DNA from: a virus
Taxonomy: Duplodnaviria; Caudoviricetes
DNA length: 36,369 nt
Reading direction: 5' to 3' (one strand)
Virus record (IMG/VR): IMGVR_UViG_3300032232_001056
Location: 1 to 36,369 of that record
This document shows positions 402 through 34,262 of this stretch, in pieces. Below the pieces are notes generated by a model. It searched no databases, was not told where the DNA came from, and saw nothing but the letters and a program-made list of their open reading frames with translations. Position numbers and translations under genes: made by a program. Position 1 is the first letter of the stretch; every line of letters starts with the position of its first letter.

Positions 402-618
402 TCCTCTTGTAAGAGTTCTCAAAGATGCCCACAAGGATCTGAAACGAGCTATCGATGACGTTGAAAAACGTAAAAAAGACTTCTTAGAAATCTTGCTTAT
501 TGCCAGAAATAAGGAGGGTTGGACCTATCAAGAGATTGCCGATGTCCTCGGTATCTCCACGTCCAGGGTTCAACAGTTGGTTCGTCAGGCCCAGGGTAAG
601 AAAAGATCCAATAGATGA
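394..618 (+). CDS. sigma70 region-4-like HTH DNA-binding protein
   Basis: Start moved to ATG 394; GWTYQEIADVLGISTSRVQQLV helix-turn-helix. Confidence 0.8.
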   Translation: MTDPLVRVLKDAHKDLKRAIDDVEKRKKDFLEILLIARNKEGWTYQEIADVLGISTSRVQQLVRQAQGKKRSNR

Positions 619-1046
619 GGCTTGAATGGCCGGAATATGCGTTGGCTTTAGCTGACGTTGCTGCGCTGAGAAGCGAGGATCCCTGGCTCAAGGTTGGTGC
701 TGTAGTTCTTCGACCGGATAATTCGGTTGCAAGTATTGGCTATAACGGCGCTCCTTCTGGGATCCAAATCGATTGGGACGATCGGGAAGCTAGACGCCCG
801 TTCGTGATCCACGCTGAAGTAAACGCTCTGAGATATACAACTCCGGTCGAGGTTCGTGATGGCTTGATTGCCATTACGCATCGACCTTGCCAGGCTTGTA
901 TTCCTCTTATAGCTGCCTATGGGATCCGCCGGGTTTTCTTCGGTGTTTCTCTTGATCCGCAGGTGTATTCTGAGGATCTGCTTGATAACATTGCTGGTCA
1001 ACTCGATGTCAAAGTCGTGAACATTCCGAGGGGGAAAAATGCTTAA
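615..1046 (+). CDS. dCMP deaminase
   Basis: RSED..KVGAVV, GYNG, HAEVNAL and PCQAC zinc-deaminase motifs. Confidence 0.92.
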   Translation: MRLEWPEYALALADVAALRSEDPWLKVGAVVLRPDNSVASIGYNGAPSGIQIDWDDREARRPFVIHAEVNALRYTTPVEVRDGLIAITHRPCQACIPLIAAYGIRRVFFGVSLDPQVYSEDLLDNIAGQLDVKVVNIPRGKNA

Positions 1047-1488
1047 TCTCATATTCGAGCGCCAAAAGAAGCTTCAGGAGGAGTCATTTGGCATCGATTT
1101 TACGGATCTTTCTGATGAGGAAAGATCGCAATTCATTAAAGATATGGTCCTGGCTGCCACCGATGAGCTACACGAGGCACTTGCCGAAGTCGGTTGGAAA
1201 CCCTGGGCGACGTCTCGACACATAAATCGTGAAGCTTTTGTTGGCGAATTGGTCGATGTCCTTCACTTTATTGTCAATTTATGGCTAGCTGTAGGCGCAA
1301 CTCCGGAGGAAGTGGAGCAGCGTTATCAAGAGAAAGCTGAAAAGAACGCTAAACGTCAGAAGGAAGGATACGACGGCGTTTGGGGTAAATGTCCATCTTG
1401 TAAGCGTGCCTTTGACGATGCCGGAGTTATGTGCTCCGTTTCAGAAGGTTGCGAATATGATGACGGCTTTCCGAAAGAGGATTGCTGA
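1039..1488 (+). CDS. dimeric dUTPase/MazG-fold dNTP pyrophosphatase (possible dCTPase)
   Basis: DELHEALAEVGWKPW and ELVDVLHF motifs, K..KN..RQ..GY; C-terminal Cys cluster. Confidence 0.85.
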   Translation: MLNLIFERQKKLQEESFGIDFTDLSDEERSQFIKDMVLAATDELHEALAEVGWKPWATSRHINREAFVGELVDVLHFIVNLWLAVGATPEEVEQRYQEKAEKNAKRQKEGYDGVWGKCPSCKRAFDDAGVMCSVSEGCEYDDGFPKEDC

Positions 1489-1961
1489 TGATCACGATCC
1501 TAGAAGGTGTTGACGGCGTAGGCAAGTCAAGCCACGCAGCCTGGTTAGCTAAAGAGCAAAATGCCAAGATTCTTCACGCTGGTATCCCGCAGCATTCTCA
1601 TTGGTTTGAGGAATATATCAAGCCTTTAATGCAGCTTCCGGAGGATCAGAACGTGATCCTGGATCGCTGGCACCTGGGCGAAGCGATTTGGCCCTTCGTG
1701 TTTAACCGCAAATCACTCTTTCCACGTCCGGAATCATTCAAACTTTGCGACAATACCTTGCAAGAGCTAGGCGCTAAAGTGATTCTTATCTATCGCGACG
1801 CGGATTCTATTTCAAGCACTTTAATGCTTCGCGGCGAACAGGATCAGATCGAGACGGTTATCAAGGCCCAAGATATGTATTTTGATCTGGCTGCCACTAT
1901 GGATCATATTCAAGTGGTTAATTCCAACGATCTTCAGAGGGAGTTACCGCATGTACATTAA
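1488..1961 (+). CDS. dNMP (thymidylate-like) kinase
   Basis: P-loop ILEGVDGVGKSS and ILDRWH motif; TGATG coupling. Confidence 0.85.
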   Translation: MITILEGVDGVGKSSHAAWLAKEQNAKILHAGIPQHSHWFEEYIKPLMQLPEDQNVILDRWHLGEAIWPFVFNRKSLFPRPESFKLCDNTLQELGAKVILIYRDADSISSTLMLRGEQDQIETVIKAQDMYFDLAATMDHIQVVNSNDLQRELPHVH

Positions 1962-2787
1962 ACTAGACACGCCTTCTGAGGTGGTTGAGGTAGCTATTGG
2001 CACCTGTATCAGTCACGGATCGCCGACAACTCCTCGCGGTCAGTCCACTTTGGAAGTAAATAACGTCACCTTTGAGATCCAAAGACCCTGGTTGATGCCT
2101 TTTGACGTCAAATATAGGGATATGAAACCTTTTATTGGCGCGGTCGAAGCTCTTCAGCTGGTTGGAATGACCACAGCGCCGGAGTTGGTTATCTCCGGAT
2201 CTAAAGTCTTTGGAAACTACCTGGACGGCGGCATCTTTCACGGCGCTTATGGTCCAAGAATCTATGGACGACTTCAGCCTTTGGTTGATCTGCTTAAATC
2301 AGATCCGGATTCACGTCAGGCTGTCTTAACCATATTTGACTCTCGTCAGGATCTGGGAGCAAACGTAAAAGATGTTCCTTGTACCCTGGCGCTTCAGTTC
2401 TTTGTTCGCGACGATAAGCTCTGCATGAGAACAACCATGAGATCCAACGACGTTTGGCTAGGTTTGCCATACGATTTGGTTCAATTTACGGCGCTTCAGG
2501 GAGCTATTGCCGCAGCTTTGGGCATTGAAATGGGTTGGTATGCCCATTCCGTAGGATCGTTGCACCTATACGCAAGGGATATGGAGCAGGCGGAACAGAT
2601 CCAGGCAAGCTATGACCAAAACTGGGACTATGAACCACTTTGGTCACGAGATACAATTGAGCTTATCTCCGGCACGGCTAGAGGAATTCTCTATGGTTGG
2701 CAGGCTAATATGTATCTTGCCGGTTTGACCAAGTTTGAAACCTGGTTAGAGAATGCAGTTTTCCAGGCACGAGAACGGATTATATGA
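1951..2787 (+). CDS. thymidylate-synthase-fold enzyme, dCMP hydroxymethylase/methylase type
   Basis: AYGPR, DSRQAV, catalytic DVPC, MRSNDVWLGLPYD (Asp where dUMP-specific ThyA has Asn), SLHLY; start ATG 1951. Confidence 0.85.
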   Translation: MYIKLDTPSEVVEVAIGTCISHGSPTTPRGQSTLEVNNVTFEIQRPWLMPFDVKYRDMKPFIGAVEALQLVGMTTAPELVISGSKVFGNYLDGGIFHGAYGPRIYGRLQPLVDLLKSDPDSRQAVLTIFDSRQDLGANVKDVPCTLALQFFVRDDKLCMRTTMRSNDVWLGLPYDLVQFTALQGAIAAALGIEMGWYAHSVGSLHLYARDMEQAEQIQASYDQNWDYEPLWSRDTIELISGTARGILYGWQANMYLAGLTKFETWLENAVFQARERII

Positions 2788-3140
2788 GTCAACACCGTAA
2801 GCATCGAGGATACGCAACTCAGCGGATCTTAGCTGAGTTCTTGCAAGAGAACGGGTTTCCTTATGCTGAATCCACTGGTGCAGGACGCTCGGGTACCGAC
2901 GTCACTGGCACTATCGGGATTGATTGGGAAGTAAAGGCTCGGCGTGGGTTTCCCGTCGTTGAAACGATGGAGCAACTTAGCGATCGGGCAAAAGAAGGTT
3001 TAGTTGGAATCGCTGTACTCAGGCCCGATGGTTGGGGTCCAGCGAAGATAGCTGATTGGCCGGCAATCGTACCTTTGAGCGTCATTGTGAAGCTCTTGCG
3101 AGAAGTCGGTTATGGAGATCCAATCGAAGGGGAAAAATAA
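2784..3140 (+). CDS. Holliday-junction resolvase, PD-(D/E)XK type
   Basis: KHRG...GRSGTDVTG..IDWEVKAR motif. Confidence 0.75.
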   Translation: MSQHRKHRGYATQRILAEFLQENGFPYAESTGAGRSGTDVTGTIGIDWEVKARRGFPVVETMEQLSDRAKEGLVGIAVLRPDGWGPAKIADWPAIVPLSVIVKLLREVGYGDPIEGEK

Positions 3141-3898
3141 TGGCATCACCAGCTTTGGCGGTTACTGTTGGTACTGGTCGTGGATACGTTCACCCAGTTA
3201 CCCAAGTTACCGTTCCATCAGTAACGACAATACTTCAGGTATTGGATAAGCCGGCGCTTCCGCGTTGGGCAGCAAAATCTGTGGCAGAATTTGCCGCAGC
3301 TAATAAGAGTTCGTGGGTTAATCTTCCGGACGATGCAGCGATCGACTTGTTAAAAGGATCTCCCTGGAGAACACGCGATCGCGCGGCAGAAGCCGGAACT
3401 AATGCTCACGAATACTGTGAAGCTTTGCTAAATGGGGAAGTTAGCATTGATTCACCGTTTGATCCGCCTGGTTTAGGTGAAGCAGCAAAGAACCTTCGAG
3501 GGATTCTTAAAGCTGTTCAACCTCAACCACTCTCGATCGAAGGAACGGTGTGGTCGCATAAATACGGCTACGCCGGTTCCTTCGACGGGATTCATATCAT
3601 CGATGGAGTAGTAACTCTTGTGGATCTGAAAACGTCCACCGGAGTTTACTCTGATTACTCGATCCAGCTTGCAGCATATAAGTATGCTGAAGTGATCCTG
3701 AAACCGGACGGAACGGAAGTACCGGTTCCTCCCATCGAAAAATGCCAGATCTGGCATGCACCCAAAGAAGGATCATGGAGCGTCGTTGAAATGGACGTTA
3801 CCGAGGCCGAGTTTGGCGTGTTTCTAGCGGCGCTTGAAGTATTCAAGTGGAAGACGGAACGCTCGAAGCAAGTCATGGGCAAAAAGATCCGTTCATAG
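3140..3898 (+). CDS. PD-(D/E)XK exonuclease (Cas4/RecB-like)
   Basis: PSVTTIL, GTNAH, YAGSFDG, VDLKTS, QLAAY; start ATG 3140 after GAAGGGG. Confidence 0.85.
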   Translation: MASPALAVTVGTGRGYVHPVTQVTVPSVTTILQVLDKPALPRWAAKSVAEFAAANKSSWVNLPDDAAIDLLKGSPWRTRDRAAEAGTNAHEYCEALLNGEVSIDSPFDPPGLGEAAKNLRGILKAVQPQPLSIEGTVWSHKYGYAGSFDGIHIIDGVVTLVDLKTSTGVYSDYSIQLAAYKYAEVILKPDGTEVPVPPIEKCQIWHAPKEGSWSVVEMDVTEAEFGVFLAALEVFKWKTERSKQVMGKKIRS

Positions 3899-3940
3899 CT
3901 TTGCAAAAGCAAAAACAAACAACTAATCGAAGGGAAAACC

Positions 3941-4447
3941 ATGTTCGAACAACCAAAATCGGGCGGCGGGTTTTTTAAGCCAGCCGACCACCAGGGACAC
4001 TTAGTCCTTTTCACTGCAGTAAAGACATCAGCGCGTCGTTATGACGAGCTACGCAAGGGAGAAATCGATGAATTCATCGTCGACTTCGTCGATCTCGACG
4101 GAGACCAGCAAGTCCAAACCGATGTCAAAGTCGGACACGTTGGAATCACCAACAAGCTATCTGTTGGATCAAAGAACGTCCTTGCGCGAGTTGGGACCGT
4201 CGACACCGGAAAAGGAAACCCAGCCTGGGTCCTCAACAATTTCCAAGATGCTGACGTTGCTCGCGCTCAGGCGTGGGTCGAAGCTCAAGCGCAAAAGGCT
4301 TTTGCTCAACCTGCTGCTGCAGCCGTTCCTGCAGCGGCGCCGGTAAGTCCTTCGGCACAATCCGCGGTTACAGGGGGTATGTCTCAGGAGCAAATTGCAT
4401 TACTTATGCAGCAGCTCGGAGCCACACCGGTAACGCCGAAGTTCTAA
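3941..4447 (+). CDS. putative single-stranded DNA-binding/annealing protein
   Basis: Follows the exonuclease; beta-rich N-terminus, GKGNPAWVL, Ala/Pro-rich tail ending in PKF. Confidence 0.55.
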   Translation: MFEQPKSGGGFFKPADHQGHLVLFTAVKTSARRYDELRKGEIDEFIVDFVDLDGDQQVQTDVKVGHVGITNKLSVGSKNVLARVGTVDTGKGNPAWVLNNFQDADVARAQAWVEAQAQKAFAQPAAAAVPAAAPVSPSAQSAVTGGMSQEQIALLMQQLGATPVTPKF

Positions 4448-4454
4448 CCAAATC

Positions 4455-4501
4455 GATGCGTTCAGGATCGGTGACACCTTTCCACTGATCCTGAACGCAT
4501 C
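4455..4501 (+). terminator. 19-bp stem-loop after the SSB-like gene
   Basis: GATGCGTTCAGGATCGGTG / CACTGATCCTGAACGCATC with one G-U pair; 9-nt loop; no U-tract. Confidence 0.6.
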
Positions 4502-4521
4502 ACTTATCCTGAGGGGGAAAT

Positions 4522-4674
4522 ATGTTTGAATTTATATTTGGAATGTTTATATCTTTCCTATTGATCCGGTTGATCAATAGGTTTTCACTAACTCGTCCAA
4601 TCAAGATCGACACAAGCGAAATGGAGGCACTAGAAAAGCTCGGTCAAGCAATCGAAAGAAAGAGAGAACGATGA
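4522..4674 (+). CDS. small membrane-anchored protein (50 aa, not in ORF track)
   Basis: GAGGGGG RBS; MFEFIFGMFISFLLIRL...; ATGA overlap with next gene. Confidence 0.7.
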   Translation: MFEFIFGMFISFLLIRLINRFSLTRPIKIDTSEMEALEKLGQAIERKRER

Positions 4675-5108
4675 AGATACACGTCAATATCCGATTTGTG
4701 GCTACATTAGCGATAGCATCGCTGATCTTCTACGCAGTAGGAGTAAGTCACGCTGAAGACATAAAGCAAGAAAATTCATCGCTTGAGTACATCAAAGCGA
4801 CAACTGCAAGCTTCCAGGTAAATGAGGCTCGTTACTTAGCTTTTCAGCTATTAACAAGCAAGCAATTCGAATGCCTGGACTATGTGTTAACGCGCGAATC
4901 TCATTGGAACTCAAAGGCTAAAAACCCTAATAGTTCAGCAAAGGGAATCGGGCAATTACTAAACGAAACATATCGCAACATTGGTATGAAGCATTCGACG
5001 GATAGTCGAGCGCAACTCATAGCAACGCTTGCATACATAAGCCGGTGGTACGGATCAGCGGGCCCATGTGGAGCAAAAGCTCACTGGTTAAAACATAAGT
5101 GGTATTAG
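4671..5108 (+). CDS. secreted lytic transglycosylase (SLT/lysozyme-like)
   Basis: Signal peptide; RESHWN..AKNPNSSAKGIGQLL; YI..WYG..CGA..HW....WY. Confidence 0.8.
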   Translation: MKIHVNIRFVATLAIASLIFYAVGVSHAEDIKQENSSLEYIKATTASFQVNEARYLAFQLLTSKQFECLDYVLTRESHWNSKAKNPNSSAKGIGQLLNETYRNIGMKHSTDSRAQLIATLAYISRWYGSAGPCGAKAHWLKHKWY

Positions 5109-5119
5109 GGAAGGATCAA

Positions 5120-5239
5120 ATGAAAAAGATTAGTATTCTTACGGGGTGGAACTGGAACGGTTTTGGGATTGGATTTCACTTTGATAAGTGGCATTTCTCC
5201 CTGGATCTAGGGTTTGCCTGGATCTCGTTCGAGTGGTAA
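5120..5239 (+). CDS. 39-aa Trp/Phe/Gly-rich peptide (not in ORF track)
   Basis: GGAAGGA RBS; MKKISILTGWNWNGFGIGFHFDKWHFSLDLGFAWISFEW fills the gap between genes. Confidence 0.6.
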   Translation: MKKISILTGWNWNGFGIGFHFDKWHFSLDLGFAWISFEW

Positions 5240-5242
5240 GTA

Positions 5243-5410
5243 ATGCCAACGTACGATTTCAAATGTAATTCTTGCGGAATTACCGTCGAAGTCACCCGGA
5301 GCGTAGAGGAAGAATCTGTGCCCCGGTGTGACTGCGGCGAGATGATGTCTAAGATGTTTTCGGCACCGGGTATAGTTTTCAAGGGAACGGGTTGGGGAGG
5401 AAAGCCATGA
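5243..5410 (+). CDS. FmdB-family zinc-ribbon protein (55 aa, not in ORF track)
   Basis: MPTYDFKCNSCG...PRCDCG...FSAPGIVFKGTGWGGKP. Confidence 0.85.
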   Translation: MPTYDFKCNSCGITVEVTRSVEEESVPRCDCGEMMSKMFSAPGIVFKGTGWGGKP

Positions 5411-5688
5411 GTATCGATTGGTCAACAGTTAGAGCATGCAAAGATTGTTGTGACATACGTAAAGCTACGGATCTAGAAATAAATAAGTACATCGAGGATC
5501 ACGTTTCGCATGATGATGAAATTTGGTACTGCGGTGGTTGCCGGAACTCACAGAACGAGTGGGTAATTGGAGATATGCTTTGGGACATTGAAAATGAATT
5601 TCTAGTGACACCCTGTTGTCATACGGAAGCTGCAGCAGCGCTCAATAGCTACGATCCAACGGCGTACAGAACGAAGAGTAAAAGATGA
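5407..5688 (+). CDS. Cys-rich hypothetical protein
   Basis: ATGA overlap with the FmdB-like gene; CKDC, CGGC and TPCC motifs. Confidence 0.7.
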   Translation: MSIDWSTVRACKDCCDIRKATDLEINKYIEDHVSHDDEIWYCGGCRNSQNEWVIGDMLWDIENEFLVTPCCHTEAAAALNSYDPTAYRTKSKR

Positions 5689-5783
5689 GTAAATGTACGC
5701 GCTGTGAGGAAGAAATAGAAGAAGATACTGGAATTCGATTACTGGACTGGATTCTTTGCGAAATTTGTTACGGCGATATTTAA
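5685..5783 (+). CDS. 32-aa zinc-finger peptide (not in ORF track)
   Basis: MSKCTRCEEE...LCEICYGDI; ATGA overlap. Confidence 0.6.
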   Translation: MSKCTRCEEEIEEDTGIRLLDWILCEICYGDI

Positions 5784-5808
5784 TTAAAATTGTTTGAAAG
5801 GGGAAAAC

Positions 5809-7974
5809 ATGAATCCAGCTGAAGAAGTAGTAGTAATGGGTCCTTACGAAAGATCCGCCAAAGAGTATAGAGCATTAGGTTGGCTTGACGTATTGCCATT
5901 ACCGGCAGGTAAGAAAAGCCACCCGCCAACAGGATTTACGGGAAAGAGATTTGCACATGTATCTCCCGACGATAATCAGATCCAGAACTGGATCAAGAAT
6001 AAGGGTCTTGGAAATATAGCTTTGCGCATGCCTGCCAACGTGCTCGGGATTGACGTTGACGCGTATGGAGACAAAGCCGGATCTGAAACCTTGACACGAG
6101 CCATAGCAAGTTTTGGCCCGCTGCCAGATACATGGAGAGTTACCTCTCGCGATGACGGCACGAGCGGAATTAGATTTTATAGAGTTCCGGAGGGTCTTCA
6201 GTGGCCCAATCAAGTTGGCCCTGGTATTGAAACGATCCACCGAGGTCATCGATATGCCGTAGTTTGGCCCAGCCTTCACCCTGAGGGAAGAGTTTACCGT
6301 TGGATCGGTCCGGATAACATGACGGCAATCGGCACCGGACCATCTCCTATGATCCTTCCTGAGCTACCTTCCACTTGGGTTCAAGGACTTACTCACGGTC
6401 AAGCTGCCACGGCAGCCACCGAACGGTCTGATGCGAACGCTGAAGAAATGGCTGTCGCATTTGCCGAATGGTGTACGCCGGGTAATCCTTGCTCTCTAGT
6501 AAATAGAAAGATTGACGATTTATCCGAAGCTTTATCGGGTCGATTAGGATCACGACACGATGCGGTGCGAGATCTTATGCTAAGCTTATTGCGGCTTGGT
6601 CAAACCGGTCACGCTGGAGTGGATTATGCGCTTCAGAAGACAGGTCGAGATTTTACGATGGTTGTCGGGGCTGATCGAGGAACCGTCACAGCGGATCTTG
6701 AATGGCGTCGTATGTTACTCGGCGGTATCTCTATTATCCTGGCTAATCTTCACTCACACGAGATTTGTCATGGCAAGGATTGCGACGGCAAGCTAAAGGG
6801 CATGGAGTTCAACGTAACTGAATTCCTAGCGACACCACCTCCGAGCGGTATTTCAGATCCTGAATCAGACGATGAAGAAGTATCCATTTACGCTGATCTG
6901 TCATGGTTACTCACGGGTAATGCTCCGGTTATTGATCCTCCGACTTGGATCACTAGATCCGATGGAGCTTCACTCTTCTATCAGGGACGTATTAACGGCG
7001 TGTTTGGTGATCCGGAAACGGCTAAATCCTGGCTAGCTATGTGCGCTGTGGTCGAGGGACTTCAGAAGGGCCGCAAAGCGGTTTATCTGGACGTGGATCA
7101 CAACGGATCTGGAGAAATAGCTACACGCCTTATCTCTCTTGGTGCTCCGGTAGCTTTTGTGGCTAATCCTGAGTATTTTAGGATCGCAGAACCAGAAGAC
7201 ATCATCGGACTGAGAGCTTTTATTCATGATATGCTTGAATGGAAACCGGAGATAGCGGTCGTAGATTCCCTGGGTGAAATTGTGCCCATGTTAGGTCTTA
7301 AGTCCACCGATAACGACGATATTACTAAAGCGATTCGAGCTATCTGCAAGCCTTTGGCTCACGTGATCGGCGCTTGCGTTATTACGATTGACCACTTGCC
7401 GAAGGGCGTTGATGCCAGATCCTCCGGTTATGCGATCGGCGGCACGGCTAAGAAACGTGCGGTCGACGGATCATATTTATCAGCTGAGGTTCTATTGGCA
7501 CCGGCGCCTGGTAAGCTAGGCAAGATCAGCCTTTCCATTGAGAAGGATCGTAACGGAGGACTTAGATCCGCCTCTCCTGGTAAGCATGCCGGAACGTTCG
7601 TCCTAGATTCAACGGAAGAGGGCCGAACCAAATGGCATATAGAAATGCCCACACTTTCCCACGATGGCAAGATGCGACCAACTCTTCTCATGGAAAGGTC
7701 GTCCAGATTTGTCATCGAATGGATCGGTGAAGATGCTCCGACCCGAAACGAGATAGTGAAGGGCGTAAAAGGCAAAGATTCAGCCGTGGGTCTAGCTATC
7801 GACGTTCTCGTTGAGGAAGGTTATCTATCCGAGACAAAAGACGGCGAGTCTAAAAATTCAGCCCGTCGCTTTACTTCGATCAAGGCGTATTCAAGCGCCG
7901 ATGATCCTTTATCCGATAATAACAAATCGTTATTTACTCAACCAGGGGGAAGAAATGACTTATACTTCGATTGA
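5809..7974 (+). CDS. bifunctional primase-polymerase fused to AAA/RecA-like helicase
   Basis: N-terminal LPLP..KK.P, GNIAL, GIDVD, VVWPSLHPEG; Walker A-like GDPETAKS, Walker B VVDS, IDH; C-terminal winged helix; start ATG 5809. Confidence 0.88.
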   Translation: MNPAEEVVVMGPYERSAKEYRALGWLDVLPLPAGKKSHPPTGFTGKRFAHVSPDDNQIQNWIKNKGLGNIALRMPANVLGIDVDAYGDKAGSETLTRAIASFGPLPDTWRVTSRDDGTSGIRFYRVPEGLQWPNQVGPGIETIHRGHRYAVVWPSLHPEGRVYRWIGPDNMTAIGTGPSPMILPELPSTWVQGLTHGQAATAATERSDANAEEMAVAFAEWCTPGNPCSLVNRKIDDLSEALSGRLGSRHDAVRDLMLSLLRLGQTGHAGVDYALQKTGRDFTMVVGADRGTVTADLEWRRMLLGGISIILANLHSHEICHGKDCDGKLKGMEFNVTEFLATPPPSGISDPESDDEEVSIYADLSWLLTGNAPVIDPPTWITRSDGASLFYQGRINGVFGDPETAKSWLAMCAVVEGLQKGRKAVYLDVDHNGSGEIATRLISLGAPVAFVANPEYFRIAEPEDIIGLRAFIHDMLEWKPEIAVVDSLGEIVPMLGLKSTDNDDITKAIRAICKPLAHVIGACVITIDHLPKGVDARSSGYAIGGTAKKRAVDGSYLSAEVLLAPAPGKLGKISLSIEKDRNGGLRSASPGKHAGTFVLDSTEEGRTKWHIEMPTLSHDGKMRPTLLMERSSRFVIEWIGEDAPTRNEIVKGVKGKDSAVGLAIDVLVEEGYLSETKDGESKNSARRFTSIKAYSSADDPLSDNNKSLFTQPGGRNDLYFD

Positions 7975-9100
7975 TTGCCAATCGTTCGCAGGTGGATTTA
8001 CGCTAGGAAATAAGCTAGCAGGATTCGAAATCATCGGAAAGCGTGAAGCTACCGGAGGGTTTGGAGTACCGGCGGTAGAAGGTAACAAAAAGTTACTTGG
8101 CGACTTCAGCATAGAAGCTGGCGCTCCAGATACTTGGACGCCTCTTAAGGCTGATCTAGTGTTCGGAAATCCTCCTTGCTCAGGCTTCTCGAACCGATCC
8201 AGTATGGTCCGAGGACTAGACGAGAACGGAGAGATCCAGAGAGTTCAGTACACCGGATACGCAGCGGCGCCTAACCAATGCATGTGGGATCTGATCGAAT
8301 ACGCTGCCAAGTGTGATCCGGAGATTGTTATCTTTGAATCTGTCCAGGGCGCCTATAACAAGGGCCGAGACCTCATGCAGGATCTAAGAAATAGCCTTGA
8401 GATGAAAACCGGCAGCCAATACCACCTTTATCATGTTCTTCATGATGTAGCTAAGCTAGGTGGAGCTCAGGAACGCAAGAGATATTTCTGGGTTGCTGCC
8501 AGGATCAAGTTCGGAGTCGATCCGGTCGAGATCAGCCCTACTACGGTCAAAGATCGCATCGGTGACCTTGAGAACGTTGCTCTAGGATCGATGAACGGTC
8601 ACCAGATCGAGGATACTCCCCGAGGTCGTCGGGTAACTGAGCTAGCGTCCAAAGTGGAATGGAAAGCGAACGAGGTATCAGGAGACGTGTATCGACGGGC
8701 CCTGGATCTTGGTGCTGATCTTGAACTTTGGGACGAGGATCTAAAGAGCGATAAGGGTATTACCCAATTTGCTCCAAAGAGACTGAGCTACGACACCCCT
8801 TCAAATGTCCTTGCCGGAGATGCCCTTTGGCGTCAGGTTCACCCAACTTTGCCCCGGACTTTGACACACCGGGAAGTTGCTCGGCTGTCCGGGTTCCCCG
8901 ATGATTGGGACTGTGAGCCGTATCAGGATCGTAAAGCTAATGCTTACTGGTGGGGAAAAGGGATCTGTATTGAAGCCGGAAAGTGGATCTCAACTGCGGC
9001 TTACGATGCCATTTCGGGCCAACCTCAAGCTTACCAGGGTGAGATTATTGGTGATCGAGAGAGCCTTATTGACTTCAGCAAGGCTAAAAAAAATGGATAA
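7955..9100 (+). CDS. C5-cytosine DNA methyltransferase-fold enzyme with atypical cofactor motifs
   Basis: Motif IV GNPPCSGFS, VI IFESV, VIII QERKR, IX RTLTHREVARLSGFPDDW; motif I DCQSFAGGF and motif X WGKGI are non-canonical; GGGGGA RBS before ATG 7955. Confidence 0.85.
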   Translation: MTYTSIDCQSFAGGFTLGNKLAGFEIIGKREATGGFGVPAVEGNKKLLGDFSIEAGAPDTWTPLKADLVFGNPPCSGFSNRSSMVRGLDENGEIQRVQYTGYAAAPNQCMWDLIEYAAKCDPEIVIFESVQGAYNKGRDLMQDLRNSLEMKTGSQYHLYHVLHDVAKLGGAQERKRYFWVAARIKFGVDPVEISPTTVKDRIGDLENVALGSMNGHQIEDTPRGRRVTELASKVEWKANEVSGDVYRRALDLGADLELWDEDLKSDKGITQFAPKRLSYDTPSNVLAGDALWRQVHPTLPRTLTHREVARLSGFPDDWDCEPYQDRKANAYWWGKGICIEAGKWISTAAYDAISGQPQAYQGEIIGDRESLIDFSKAKKNG

Positions 9101-13510: not shown

Positions 13511-14724
13511 TGAGTCTCATACGCCGTGGAGTCGTGGGTCGTTACCCGCAATTTAACAACTATGTAGCACCACTGTCTCAACTCTACGGACAGACAAACA
13601 TTACAAGTGCCGCCGGAGAACGCATCGATGAGTGGACTGCTCTTGGAGTTTCAGCTGTTCTAGGATCTGTTTCATTACTAGCGGACACCATTGCATCAAT
13701 GCCACTTAAGCAATACAAGATGGTTAAGGGCAAAAGAGTTCCGGTAGAACTATCTGATGTACTAAAAAATCCAGATCCTGAATCAAATACCTTTGAGCTT
13801 ATTCACCAAATGGTATTCTCTTGTGCTCTTCACGGTAATGCTTATATTCATATTGACCGCAATCGCAGCGGAAATATGATTGGTTTAGTTCCTTTGCACC
13901 CTTATCAGATGCAAGTTCTTCCAACTGGAGATCAAGTTGGACGTAAGTATCTGCACCTTGGAAACGCGCTTGACTCTCAGGATCTGATTCACATGCGTTG
14001 GCTAACACCTCCACAATCTTTGGTTGGTGTTTCTCCCATGATCCAGAATAGAAATCTTATTGGTATTGCAATGGCTATGGATCGCCACATTTCACAATTT
14101 TACGGAGAAGGTGCAACACCTTCTTCAGTTCTTGAGACGGATCAGAAGCTTACTTTAGATCAGGCTCGAACAATTCAAGGAACTTTTGAAGCTACTCACC
14201 GTCGTCATCGTCGCGTAGCGGTACTTACAGACGGATTAAAGTGGAAGCCAATTACATCTTCTGCTGCAGATCAGCAAATGATTGAAACTCGCGAGCAACT
14301 CATTAGAGATATTGCTCGCGTATTTCGTATTCCTTCGCACCTTATTCTTGCTTCAGGAGATAACCAGACATACCAGAACGTTGAACAAGCTTCATTGAAC
14401 TTCCTTCAACACACAATCGCGCCGTGGCTTTGCCGCGTAGAAGATGCGTTAAGTCGTATTCTTCCTGACGGCACTGACGTTGCGTTTGATACTTCAATCC
14501 TTCTTCGCACTGATGCAATGACTCGTGCTGAAGTTGGAAAGATCCTGGTATCAACTGGTCTACGCTCACCAAACGAATTACGTCAACAAGACGGATTTGA
14601 GCCTTACAGTGGTGGAGATGTCTTTAACCAGGCATTCCAGGGAACACTTACAACCGGTCCAGATACAGCTCCACTTGGTACTGATTCAGATACTTCAGTA
14701 CCGGTTATGGGAGTCGTTGAATAA
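13510..14724 (+). CDS. HK97-family portal protein
   Basis: IASMPL, LHGNAY, GVSP, IARVFRIP, NVEQ, SPNELR. Confidence 0.95.
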   Translation: MSLIRRGVVGRYPQFNNYVAPLSQLYGQTNITSAAGERIDEWTALGVSAVLGSVSLLADTIASMPLKQYKMVKGKRVPVELSDVLKNPDPESNTFELIHQMVFSCALHGNAYIHIDRNRSGNMIGLVPLHPYQMQVLPTGDQVGRKYLHLGNALDSQDLIHMRWLTPPQSLVGVSPMIQNRNLIGIAMAMDRHISQFYGEGATPSSVLETDQKLTLDQARTIQGTFEATHRRHRRVAVLTDGLKWKPITSSAADQQMIETREQLIRDIARVFRIPSHLILASGDNQTYQNVEQASLNFLQHTIAPWLCRVEDALSRILPDGTDVAFDTSILLRTDAMTRAEVGKILVSTGLRSPNELRQQDGFEPYSGGDVFNQAFQGTLTTGPDTAPLGTDSDTSVPVMGVVE

Positions 14725-16121
14725 TGTCTGAAACATATCGCGTACCTAAGATAGTTCTTGAAGAGGGAATTAAAAATCCTGCAATGACTCTTGAAGAAGT
14801 TGTTCAATTACGTGATTCTTGGGAAGGTCCCGAGGGTCGCGAGTGGGCAATGAATATCTGCAAAAATATTACACGCGATGCTCTTATCGTTTCTCAAAAG
14901 TACAAGGAGACAAACATGGCGGCAGCCGATATGGAAACACCGGATCTTGCGGAGGAGTTAAAAGAACTTCTAGCTGATGTTGTTTCTTTTTACTTCAAAG
15001 CTCACGGTGCACACTGGAACGTGATGGGAACTGACTTCAGCGAATATCACGGACTCTTTGAAGAAATTTACTCTGATGCTTATTCAAGCGTCGATCCAAT
15101 TGCAGAAAATATTCGTAAGCTTGGAAAGCCTGCACCATTTCAACTAGCGGCTTTTGCTGCGATGAGTGAGATTCCGCAGGATCTTGCAATCATTACTGAT
15201 GCTCGTGCTCTTGCTATGGATATTCTTTCTGCAAATGATATGATTATTGAAGAGCTTTCAGAGGTATTTGCTTGCGCTACAATGCATAATCAGCAAGGAA
15301 TTGCAAACTTTTTAGCCGATCGTATTGACTCTCATCAGAAGTGGAAGTGGCAATTATCATCTTCTCTTGGTGTAGATGTAGTAAATCCAGATCCAGAAGT
15401 TATGCCGGAAAGCCCTATTGAGGATCTTAACGAGCCTGCTGCAGACTGGATTGCTCCAGAAACTATGGCGCGAGGATCAGAAACATCAGAAAAAATTGAA
15501 ATTACCTCCGAGGAGATAACAGTGATTGAAGATCGTAAGACTGCTATGGCTTCAGCGGAACGCATCACAATGCATGCTGAGGTTCGCGCCGTAGATACTG
15601 AAGATGGATCGCTTAAGGTTGGCGGATACGCTGCAACATTTAACCAGGAAGCAACCGGTCTTCAATTCCGTGAAGTTATTGCTCAAGGAGCTTTTACTCG
15701 CACGCTTCAGACTGATAATCCGGTCTTTTTACTTGTAAATCACAATATGGACGACCTACCATTGGCATCAACTCAGTCCGGAACGCTTCGTTTGGCCCAG
15801 GATAAAGTTGGTTTGTACATGGAAGCATCTCTTGATCCTGCAAACCCACGCGCTCAAGAACTAGCTTCGGCTGTTCGTCGCGGTGACGTTGACAAGATGA
15901 GCTTTGCATTTACGGTTGCTCAAGATGGAGAAACTCGCGAAGAAGGTCTTCGTACTCTTACGGATCTGGATCTTTACGAAGTTTCTGTTGTAACTTGGCC
16001 CGCATACGATTCAACAACCGTTGGAATGCGATCAGCTCAGGATCAGGATCTTGAAATCAAAAAGCAAAAGCTTGCTTTGAAAGTAAAACAATATTCCCTA
16101 CGTTCTAAGCGTAAGGGTTAA
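14724..16121 (+). CDS. Dps/ferritin-like domain fused to HK97 prohead protease
   Basis: Dps signature HGAHWNVMG.DF..YH.LFEE.Y......D.IAE (about 14940-15370); protease motifs GYAATFN, LVNHN, MSFAF, LYEVSVVTWPAY (about 15580-16040). Confidence 0.9.
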   Translation: MSETYRVPKIVLEEGIKNPAMTLEEVVQLRDSWEGPEGREWAMNICKNITRDALIVSQKYKETNMAAADMETPDLAEELKELLADVVSFYFKAHGAHWNVMGTDFSEYHGLFEEIYSDAYSSVDPIAENIRKLGKPAPFQLAAFAAMSEIPQDLAIITDARALAMDILSANDMIIEELSEVFACATMHNQQGIANFLADRIDSHQKWKWQLSSSLGVDVVNPDPEVMPESPIEDLNEPAADWIAPETMARGSETSEKIEITSEEITVIEDRKTAMASAERITMHAEVRAVDTEDGSLKVGGYAATFNQEATGLQFREVIAQGAFTRTLQTDNPVFLLVNHNMDDLPLASTQSGTLRLAQDKVGLYMEASLDPANPRAQELASAVRRGDVDKMSFAFTVAQDGETREEGLRTLTDLDLYEVSVVTWPAYDSTTVGMRSAQDQDLEIKKQKLALKVKQYSLRSKRKG

Positions 16122-33618: not shown

Positions 33619-34020
33619 ATGTCTGAAGAAACGAAGCGCTGCTTTGATTGCGGGAAAGTCAAGTCCTTAGACAACTTTCCTCGCGACGCAAGGCGGCCCG
33701 ACGGACGAAGAGAGGTTTGCGGAGAATGCCGCAGCGCTCATCGCCGGGCTATCAAGTCTGCAGATTATGACCAGATCCTGATCGATCAGGATCATAAATG
33801 CGGCATTTGTAAAGTCCATATTGACGAGTACCCTAGAAAGTTCAGCGTGGATCACAACCACGAGGATTACTCAATCCGAGGGCTACTTTGCGGAAACTGC
33901 AACGTAGCTATCGGTATGTTCGGTGAGGATATTGAGTTCCTAAAGTCAGCTATAGGGTATCTTATGCATCACAAAACAACAATAATCCAGGGGGAAACAT
34001 GGACAGAGACGGAATCTTAG
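33619..34020 (+). CDS. endonuclease VII-family nuclease
   Basis: CFDC..K....F, CGEC, Q...CGIC, VDHNH...IRGLLC.NCN..IG. Confidence 0.88.
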   Translation: MSEETKRCFDCGKVKSLDNFPRDARRPDGRREVCGECRSAHRRAIKSADYDQILIDQDHKCGICKVHIDEYPRKFSVDHNHEDYSIRGLLCGNCNVAIGMFGEDIEFLKSAIGYLMHHKTTIIQGETWTETES

Positions 34021-34262
34021 GCGAGGCATCGCAGTTAATTTACGGAGATCGGCAAGATGATTACGGATCTCCGGAGGACAATTTTGGTCGCATGGCTAAA
34101 TTGTGGAGCGTAGTCCTAGGAATTGAAGTAGAAATGTGGCAAGTTGCCCTGTGTATGAACCAGGTAAAGGTTGCCAGATTAGTAAATCAGCCAGCTAAGG
34201 TGGACGGCTGGATCGATGGAGCGGCTTATATGGCGCTCGGCGGTGAATTAGCCACTGAATAA
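33999..34262 (+). CDS. DUF6378-like protein (nucleotide-pyrophosphatase-like fold)
   Basis: GDRQ.DYGSP.DNF.R.A.LWS, KVAR, DGW.D.AAY. Confidence 0.75.
   Translation: MDRDGILGEASQLIYGDRQDDYGSPEDNFGRMAKLWSVVLGIEVEMWQVALCMNQVKVARLVNQPAKVDGWIDGAAYMALGGELATE

Follow-up and report, generated by a model that had tools for sequence, protein, structure and literature searches.

What does an enzyme with the fold of a cytosine C5-methyltransferase (C5-MTase) do in a phage whose cytosine is predicted to be substituted at C5 already? This question is raised by IMGVR_UViG_3300032232_001056, a tailed-phage record of IMG/VR (Duplodnaviria; Caudoviricetes). The whole stretch of 36,369 nucleotides was analysed and is called the window. 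It contains a four-gene cluster (615-2787), which is predicted to make a C5-substituted deoxycytidine (dC) nucleotide, and a gene for a C5-MTase-fold protein (7955-9100; hereafter, the enzyme). We conclude that a predicted 5-hydroxymethylcytosine (5hmC) pathway of known kind is accompanied here by an uncharacterised, widespread enzyme with a rewired cofactor site, and that there is a good chance of new chemistry.

Predicted hydroxymethylcytosine genes and the C5-MTase-fold enzyme

The genes in question are as follows.

615..1046, + strand: dCMP/dCTP deaminase homolog (PF00383, E 7e-16; phrog_174), presumably acting on dCMP or a modified nucleotide
1039..1488, + strand: all-alpha pyrophosphatase of the dUTPase_2 fold, predicted dCTPase/dUTPase (PF08761, E 7e-13)
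1488..1961 (ATG at 1488), + strand: dNMP-kinase-like protein (PF02223, weak match below the cut-off; phrog_761, E 1e-5)
1951..2787, + strand: thymidylate synthase (TS) homolog, predicted dCMP 5-hydroxymethylase (PF00303; D141, C144 and D175)
5809..7974, + strand: prim-pol/helicase gene (PF09250), with the MTase-like gene directly behind it
7955..9100, + strand: C5-MTase-fold protein with a rebuilt cofactor pocket (PF00145; Q9 (7979), F11 (7985), E31, C75 (8177), S76, E128, S129, R174, R176 and K335 (8957))

The original prediction that the four genes serve a C5-substituted dC nucleotide was borne out by the domain matches and by D141 and D175 of the TS homolog. These residues stand at the positions of L143 and N177 in ThyA, respectively, and C144 is also present. 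According to the accessible part of PMC13326640, L143D/N177D is the mark of 5-hydroxymethyl (5hm)-dCMP synthases, and 5-hydroxy-dCMP synthases share this signature. A plain dTMP synthase or a 5-methylcytosine synthase is contradicted by both diagnostic residues. The best PDB match of the TS homolog was the CMP hydroxymethylase MilA (E 3e-25). In related enzyme-bearing small phages, the MilA-like TS is replaced by a T4 gp42-like hydroxymethylase (E 2e-71 to 1B49), and the enzyme of these phages is 50-61% identical to that of the window. Two unrelated types of hydroxymethylase are thus swapped beside one enzyme clade, and the presence of a gp42 homolog beside close relatives of the enzyme favours hydroxymethyl as the C5 group. 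As far as the available text of 10.1101/2024.12.05.627091 goes, contigs with modified cytosine typically have a deaminase gene adjoining a dCMP-type TS gene. We predict that the four genes form a T4-like pathway, of known kind, which makes 5hm-dCTP.

The second part of the original prediction, a C5-MTase fold with intact catalytic motifs and altered motifs for contact with S-adenosylmethionine (SAM), was upheld by the fold search, by the residues and by 150 representatives of the clade. The AlphaFold model of the enzyme has a pLDDT of 93 and its best PDB fold match is M.HaeIII. The catalytic C75, E128, R174 and R176 are all kept (the PC, E and RxR elements are present). On the cofactor side, motif I (FxGxG) reads Q9-S-F11-A-G, ENV is changed to ESV and GN of motif X is changed to G-K335; furthermore, NPPC takes the place of SPPC, and the motif III region is not conserved in the clade. 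In the best 150 representatives, counted over aligned positions, the base-activating residues are nearly invariant (Cys in 141 of 142; Glu and both Arg in 150 of 150). The Phe of motif I is replaced, and the next Gly is Leu, Phe or Tyr in 138 of 140 and kept in one. At the position of Q82 in M.HhaI, 138 of 142 have Ser or Ala. The N304 position holds Lys in 98, Gln in 50 and Arg in one of 149, and never Asn. In engineered M.HhaI, the pocket is widened by Q82A and N304A. Among 52 proteins of the family to which the window enzyme belongs (family 1), the ribose-binding E31 does not vary. Judged by these residues, the enzyme is a member of a conserved viral clade with a rebuilt cofactor side, not a decayed methylase. 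Because the catalytic residues are kept, the enzyme probably still flips the cytosine ring and attacks C6; because the SAM motif is closed, SAM is unlikely to serve as a methyl donor. Among 18 long members of the clade, fusion to an additional, class I methyltransferase domain occurs in six. Apart from this, one member (P0253) carries an intein with a LAGLIDADG domain ahead of the catalytic Cys.

The clade is large. The window enzyme is matched by 689 proteins at E <= 1e-10, and a profile search gave 604 clusters (50% identity) at E <= 1e-30. It is almost absent from prokaryote genomes (one locus in a GTDB scan), and the atlas search returned only PF00145 clusters. Cultured carriers are the Gordonia phages GMA2, Forza and GodonK, the Micrococcus phage Kurnik and DSL-LC01; phage G, S-TIM5 and XG4 carry more distant members. 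No study of the clade was found in the literature searched, which excluded subscription papers and bioRxiv supplements, and the accessible part of PMC13326640 makes no mention of methyltransferases.

Dependence of the enzyme on predicted modified-cytosine genes

The clade was expected to co-occur with Asp-type TS homologs, and it does. Of the 81 enzyme loci, the 50 that lie on longer contigs were searched over the whole contig. A TS homolog was found on 41 of these 50 contigs and on all 22 that are near-complete, and all 41 TS homologs have Asp at both positions (Asp/Asp). Likewise, all ten isolated phages with a clear enzyme member have a TS homolog. The converse does not hold. Among 49 contigs of terminase relatives of the window, TS is present in five, of which only two have the enzyme; there were two more weak MTase matches. 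Moreover, the four genes are present in the syntenic sisters G001, G020 and L345, where the site behind the prim-pol gene cleanly lacks the enzyme. The presence of the four genes without the enzyme in sister phages shows that the pathway works alone. Thus, the link is one-way: near-complete contigs with the enzyme all have TS, and many TS-bearing sisters do without the enzyme. Upstream of the MTase-like gene, at a distance of 700 bp or less, 61 of the 81 related loci have a pyrophosphatase gene; this is not so in the window.

In small phages, the slot of the enzyme is otherwise held by a cassette with HhH-like and PALP genes or by an HMUDK_hel protein. None of the five whole enzyme-bearing small genomes has HhH-like and PALP or HMUDK_hel genes, and the enzyme is in none of the cassette-bearing genomes or loci examined, most of the cassette loci being partial contigs. 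The HhH label is our own assignment, with no Pfam match behind it. The cassette comprises three genes (a 332 aa protein of unknown type, a 350 aa HhH-like protein and a PALP-like protein) within the cluster for hydroxymethyl-dCMP (L358:10420-13331; also G004, G100 and G102), and it likely serves amino-acid hypermodification of cytosine. AGATC is about 2.2 times enriched in the L357-L392 group. A stand-alone protein with the HMUDK helical domain (PF18723) is encoded at L403:14263-15189; the phage is small and has a dCMP hydroxymethylase of T4 type. ADDT and 5-HMUDK genes are known from thymidine hypermodification. They also occur in the enzyme-clade phages L062, L067, L069, L070 and L076, and TS is Asp/Asp, hence of dCMP type, in those read (G082 and G083).

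A second family widens the association. Distant relatives of the enzyme, with the motifs PLIGG, CPCAGLS, ENAP and CQNVP, were found in loci fetched with the T4-type hydroxymethylase. All 44 loci with 5 kb or more of upstream sequence have a T4-type TS that carries the equivalent of Asp177; this count is circular in part, because loci of this kind had supplied the seeds. Family 2 extends to S-TIM5-like cyanophages, Pseudoalteromonas XG4 and gp301 of phage G; gp301 is the best viral fold match of the window enzyme model (TM 0.76). The two families are linked by shared residues, by hhalign (98.7%, E 2e-16) and by the fold search; the tree of both families lacks a canonical outgroup and hence is no test of common origin. 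In S-TIM54, the annotated ThyA (L309:12114-12956) has Asp at N177 and Cys at L143. This pair is kept in ten related loci, and the protein is predicted to act on dCMP.

The genomes themselves bear a mark of the pathway. In 21 genomes or loci, 37 six-base palindromes with an internal RC (purine followed by C) were counted and compared with the expectation from codon shuffling. Relative to this expectation, the palindromes stood at 0.81-1.11 in every one of the 14 TS-bearing genomes or loci; in six of seven TS-less sisters they stood at 0.39-0.66 (the remaining one, 0.90). C-free palindromes were below 1 in 20 of the 21, being avoided in both groups. Thus, TS-bearing phages have relaxed the avoidance of C-containing palindromes, which is the mark expected, indirectly, of modified cytosine.

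GATC excess, GGATG scarcity and the window genome

The enrichment of GATC and GGATC that had been noticed in the window withstood both base-composition and codon-shuffle tests. In the whole window, there are 361 GATC against 139 expected from base composition (2.6x) and 267 GGATC on both strands; each full 2-kb bin has 11-29 GATC. When the synonymous codons of 41 window genes were shuffled, the excess remained for GATC (323 against 186.5 +/- 9.1; z 15, 1.73x) and for GGATC (235 against 104 +/- 7.6; z 17, 2.26x), and an artefact of codons or amino acids is therefore ruled out. Two palindromic six-mers that contain GATC were not enriched by the same measure (GGATCC, 4 against 7.6; AGATCT, 7 against 14.2). 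A signature of T:G repair was rejected as well, because GGATT (0.96) and GGATA (0.98) are not depleted.

We then compared GATC ratios among phages, counting G100 as TS-only and including four GATC-poor genomes. In seven small enzyme-bearing lineages, the ratio was 1.60-1.98 (median 1.75), and GATC ranked first of 136 four-mers in six of them. In 11 TS-only genomes it was 0-1.76 (median 1.28; p 0.0008 against the enzyme-bearing lineages, kin not being independent), and in seven TS-less small phages 0.47-1.36. The syntenic pair differs in the same direction (window, 1.77; enzyme-less G001, 1.01). Background ratios of actinophages are 1.45 (TM4), 1.21 (L5) and 0.96 (phiC31). Several values weigh against GATC as the target of the enzyme. 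Large enzyme-bearing relatives have a median of 1.34 (n=41), and four of the 41 are below 0.5, that is, depleted. Two TS-only phages, L345 (1.60) and L403 (1.76), are as GATC-rich as some enzyme-bearing phages, and Pipefish reaches 1.71 with no such genes within the 30 kb read. Thus, the expected tie between the clade and a high GATC ratio holds in the small-phage subclade and fails in the large relatives, which are at background, and GATC is ruled out as a universal target of the clade. Similarly, of the three signals that the original prediction had joined, pathway and enzyme do co-occur, one-way, and the GATC excess is not common to the whole system. Because GATC tracks the enzyme only in small phages, it is a plausible target for that subclade only, at about even odds, and a host effect may be at work instead. 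In B3 mycobacteriophages, an excess of GATC and GGATCC has been published that, in the accessible part of PMC4841201, is not explained by such a system. The left end of Pipefish, a GATC-rich B3 mycobacteriophage, has ParB-like and PAPS-reductase genes (L418:1-2822), a candidate cause of its GGATCC excess.

GGATG is nearly absent from the 41 genes (5 against 55.5 in the codon shuffles). Across the whole window, GGATG/CATCC occurs six times where 79 are expected, and several sister phages share this scarcity. It is not a footprint of the enzyme, since G050 has the enzyme without the loss and L345 and L403 show the loss without the enzyme. The loss suggests host restriction by a nuclease that cytosine modification does not block, presumably of the FokI type.

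Protein scans of the window found terminase, portal, capsid, tail, CHAP endolysin and prim-pol genes, as in a tailed phage of 36.4 kb. Its terminase relatives are IMG/VR contigs of 31-37 kb, and the sequencing run index for the record gives freshwater and lake metagenomes and names no RNA run. Among isolated phages, the nearest ones that share its modification genes infect Actinobacteria, which are the inferred host. Two glycosyltransferase-like genes (17736 and 23096) were not counted as parts of the modification system, because the first is also present in TS-less sisters. Other features are a prohead protease preceded by a fused ferritin-like domain (14724-16121), a DUF6378 protein near the genome end (33999-34262) that may have a link to nucleotide modification, and a long, terminator-like inverted repeat behind an SSB-like gene (4454-4500), which was spotted by eye.

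Proposed reaction, rival explanations and known systems

The one-way dependence argues that the substrate or purpose of the enzyme needs C5-modified dC, and it is the pattern expected of a downstream enzyme. Since relatives travel with hydroxymethyl genes and have rebuilt cofactor motifs, a second chemical step on that DNA is likely. From the gene content, residues, fold, co-occurrence and genomic signatures, which were observed directly, we infer the chemical steps, nucleophile and target site as follows. The products of 615-2787 would make 5hm-dCTP and remove dCTP, so that phage DNA would have 5hmC in place of C. The enzyme would flip the target base using E128, R174 and R176. C75 would attack C6, the 5-hydroxymethyl OH would be lost and an exocyclic methylene would result, to which a thiol or amine, bound in the remodelled pocket, would add. 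In that pocket, F11 would fill the SAM site, S76 would make room at C5 and K335 would bind an acid group. To our knowledge, C5-MTases have been seen to act on 5hmC without SAM only in the test tube, as a side reaction. A precedent for the proposed reaction is the coupling of cysteamine to 5hmC by M.SssI in vitro, as given in the accessible part of PMC7176277.

Our best reading, although it stands somewhat short of an even chance, is therefore that the enzyme performs a second step without SAM, attaching a small nucleophile from the host to 5hmC, probably with a preference for GATC in the small-phage lineage. In small phages, the alternation with other putative second-step cassettes and the higher GATC ratio of enzyme-bearing lineages also speak for it. 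Besides the GATC values above, the following points count against it. There is no donor-making gene in the window. Asp/Asp(Glu) TS homologs can also yield 5-hydroxy-dCMP (PMC13326640, accessible part). In S-TIM5-like phages, the family-2 member adjoins their only TS, which combines Asp177 with Cys at position 143, unlike a typical hydroxymethylase. Large relatives, which carry sugar-nucleotide genes too, pair the enzyme with a glycosyltransferase-like family in 53 of 84 loci (so named by resemblance only; this family, F8, had no match in a PDB search) and have ADDT and HMUDK genes alongside it in nine of 84. Thus, the exclusivity between the enzyme and other hypermodifier-like genes is not general.

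The main rival, which we consider possible but rather unlikely, is that the enzyme puts a hydroxymethyl or other one-carbon (C1) group on leftover C in replicated DNA, taking it from a donor other than SAM (formaldehyde, methylene-tetrahydrofolate or hydroxymethyl-dCMP). The dCTPase-like gene upstream in 61 of 81 loci would then pair two functions of C exclusion, and coexistence with every kind of hypermodifier is accommodated. C5-MTases are reported to add aldehydes to C without SAM (Liutkeviciute 2009, title). S-TIM5 DNA is reportedly modified only at C after purines, which, if right, favours this writer. S-TIM54, a relative of S-TIM5, carries a family-2 member and an alpha-glucosyltransferase without an Asp/Asp TS (PMC10087341, accessible part). 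However, such a writer should also be found alone, without a dCMP-type TS, and this was the case in none of the 22 near-complete family-1 contigs or the 44 family-2 loci with 5 kb upstream. The alternation with amino-acid-transferase-like cassettes is also left unexplained.

It is improbable that an adenosyl-sulfonium cofactor, either carboxy-SAM as in CmoX or plain SAM, is still used on residual C. The invariant E31 speaks for it, and so does K335 at the N304 position, where DNMT3A, which uses SAM, has Arg. According to the accessible part of PMC12783734, CmoX (R350) and engineered M.MpeI (N374K) have basic residues there. However, CmoX retains two adenine contacts, the stacking Phe and the Asp of motif III, whereas in the present case Gln stands for the Phe and Phe/Leu for the next Gly. 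Neither CmoA nor CmoY was found among the 29 scanned window proteins or the scanned recurring neighbour families, and the hydroxymethylase would not be needed. Scans of window proteins and neighbour families gave no match to a TET-like dioxygenase (5mYOX clusters) either.

Slightly less probable again is a weapon that, like T4 Alc or DenA/DenB, attacks plain-C host DNA by trapping or deaminating it while 5hmC shields the phage, the GATC excess being host-driven. SAM-site mutants of C5-MTases deaminate C. This idea explains the one-way dependence, the pairing with the dCTPase gene and the persistence of members in genomes almost without GATC; it leaves unexplained why the residue at the Q82 position is small and why Lys/Gln is conserved at N304, and it accounts neither for the class I methyltransferase fusions nor for the alternation with transferase cassettes. 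Least probable is an eraser that strips hydroxymethyl from some 5hmC and so dodges modification-dependent nucleases: it needs no cofactor and would suit an alpha-glucosyltransferase phage with C reportedly only partly protected (S-TIM5), but palindromes with YC (pyrimidine followed by C) only are not more avoided with the enzyme (0.72-0.98, n=5) than in bare TS-only genomes (0.58-0.92, n=4).

Coupling to 5hmC and C1 delivery can be put under one broader proposal, to which we give slightly better than an even chance. A phage-only superfamily of about 600 clusters would have turned the C5-MTase fold SAM-free and would edit C5-substituted DNA in vivo, by coupling of a host thiol or amine to 5hmC or by delivery of C1 from a folate or nucleotide donor. 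At sites such as GATC, which selection would have multiplied in the genome, a base not yet described would result. If this is true, it means a new enzyme class and probably new bases in phage DNA hypermodification, and possibly a tool, free of any cofactor and directed by sequence, with which 5hmC could be labelled or edited. The cultured carriers, together with the natural pairs of sisters with and without the enzyme, make the question directly testable.

Among known systems, the pre-replicative T4 5hmC pathway (gp42 dCMP hydroxymethylase, gp1 kinase, gp56 dCTPase/dUTPase and Cd deaminase) has the same four functions as are predicted for the window cluster. The window TS has Asp at both specificity positions, as in T4, and close relatives carry a true gp42 homolog. 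In contrast to T4, the synthase is MilA-like, the genome is siphovirus-like and of 36 kb with no replicative polymerase seen beyond prim-pol, and no alpha- or beta-glucosyltransferase gene lies beside the cluster. With the canonical C5-MTases M.HaeIII and M.HhaI, the enzyme shares the fold and the catalytic Cys, Glu, Arg and Arg; FxGxG, Q82, ENV and the motif X Asn, however, are exchanged in a conserved way in its clade. CmoX of cyanophage S-B43 is likewise a phage protein of the C5-MTase fold whose N304 position is basic. As described in the accessible part of PMC12783734, its outcome is not methylation; it retains the adenine contacts of the SAM type, depends on CmoA, modifies plain C and occurs together with CmoA/CmoY, and the family filter used there requires Arg at N304, where the window enzyme has Lys. 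In contrast, the enzyme clade has lost the Phe and Gly of motif I and occurs with dCMP-type TS homologs, and the profile match of the enzyme to 8YF3 (E 3e-10) is weaker than that to M.HaeIII. Finally, the post-replicative hypermodifiers of 5hmC and 5-hydroxymethyluracil (glycosyltransferases, carbamoyltransferase, and 5-HMUDK with amino acid:DNA transferases) show the same one-way dependence on a hydroxymethyl-nucleotide pathway, and the enzyme occupies the same slot as such genes in small sister phages. Unlike these hypermodifiers, it has a fold that is unreported for such a job in the accessible parts of the literature searched, and its reaction would rest on covalent activation of the base, where they use an activated donor.

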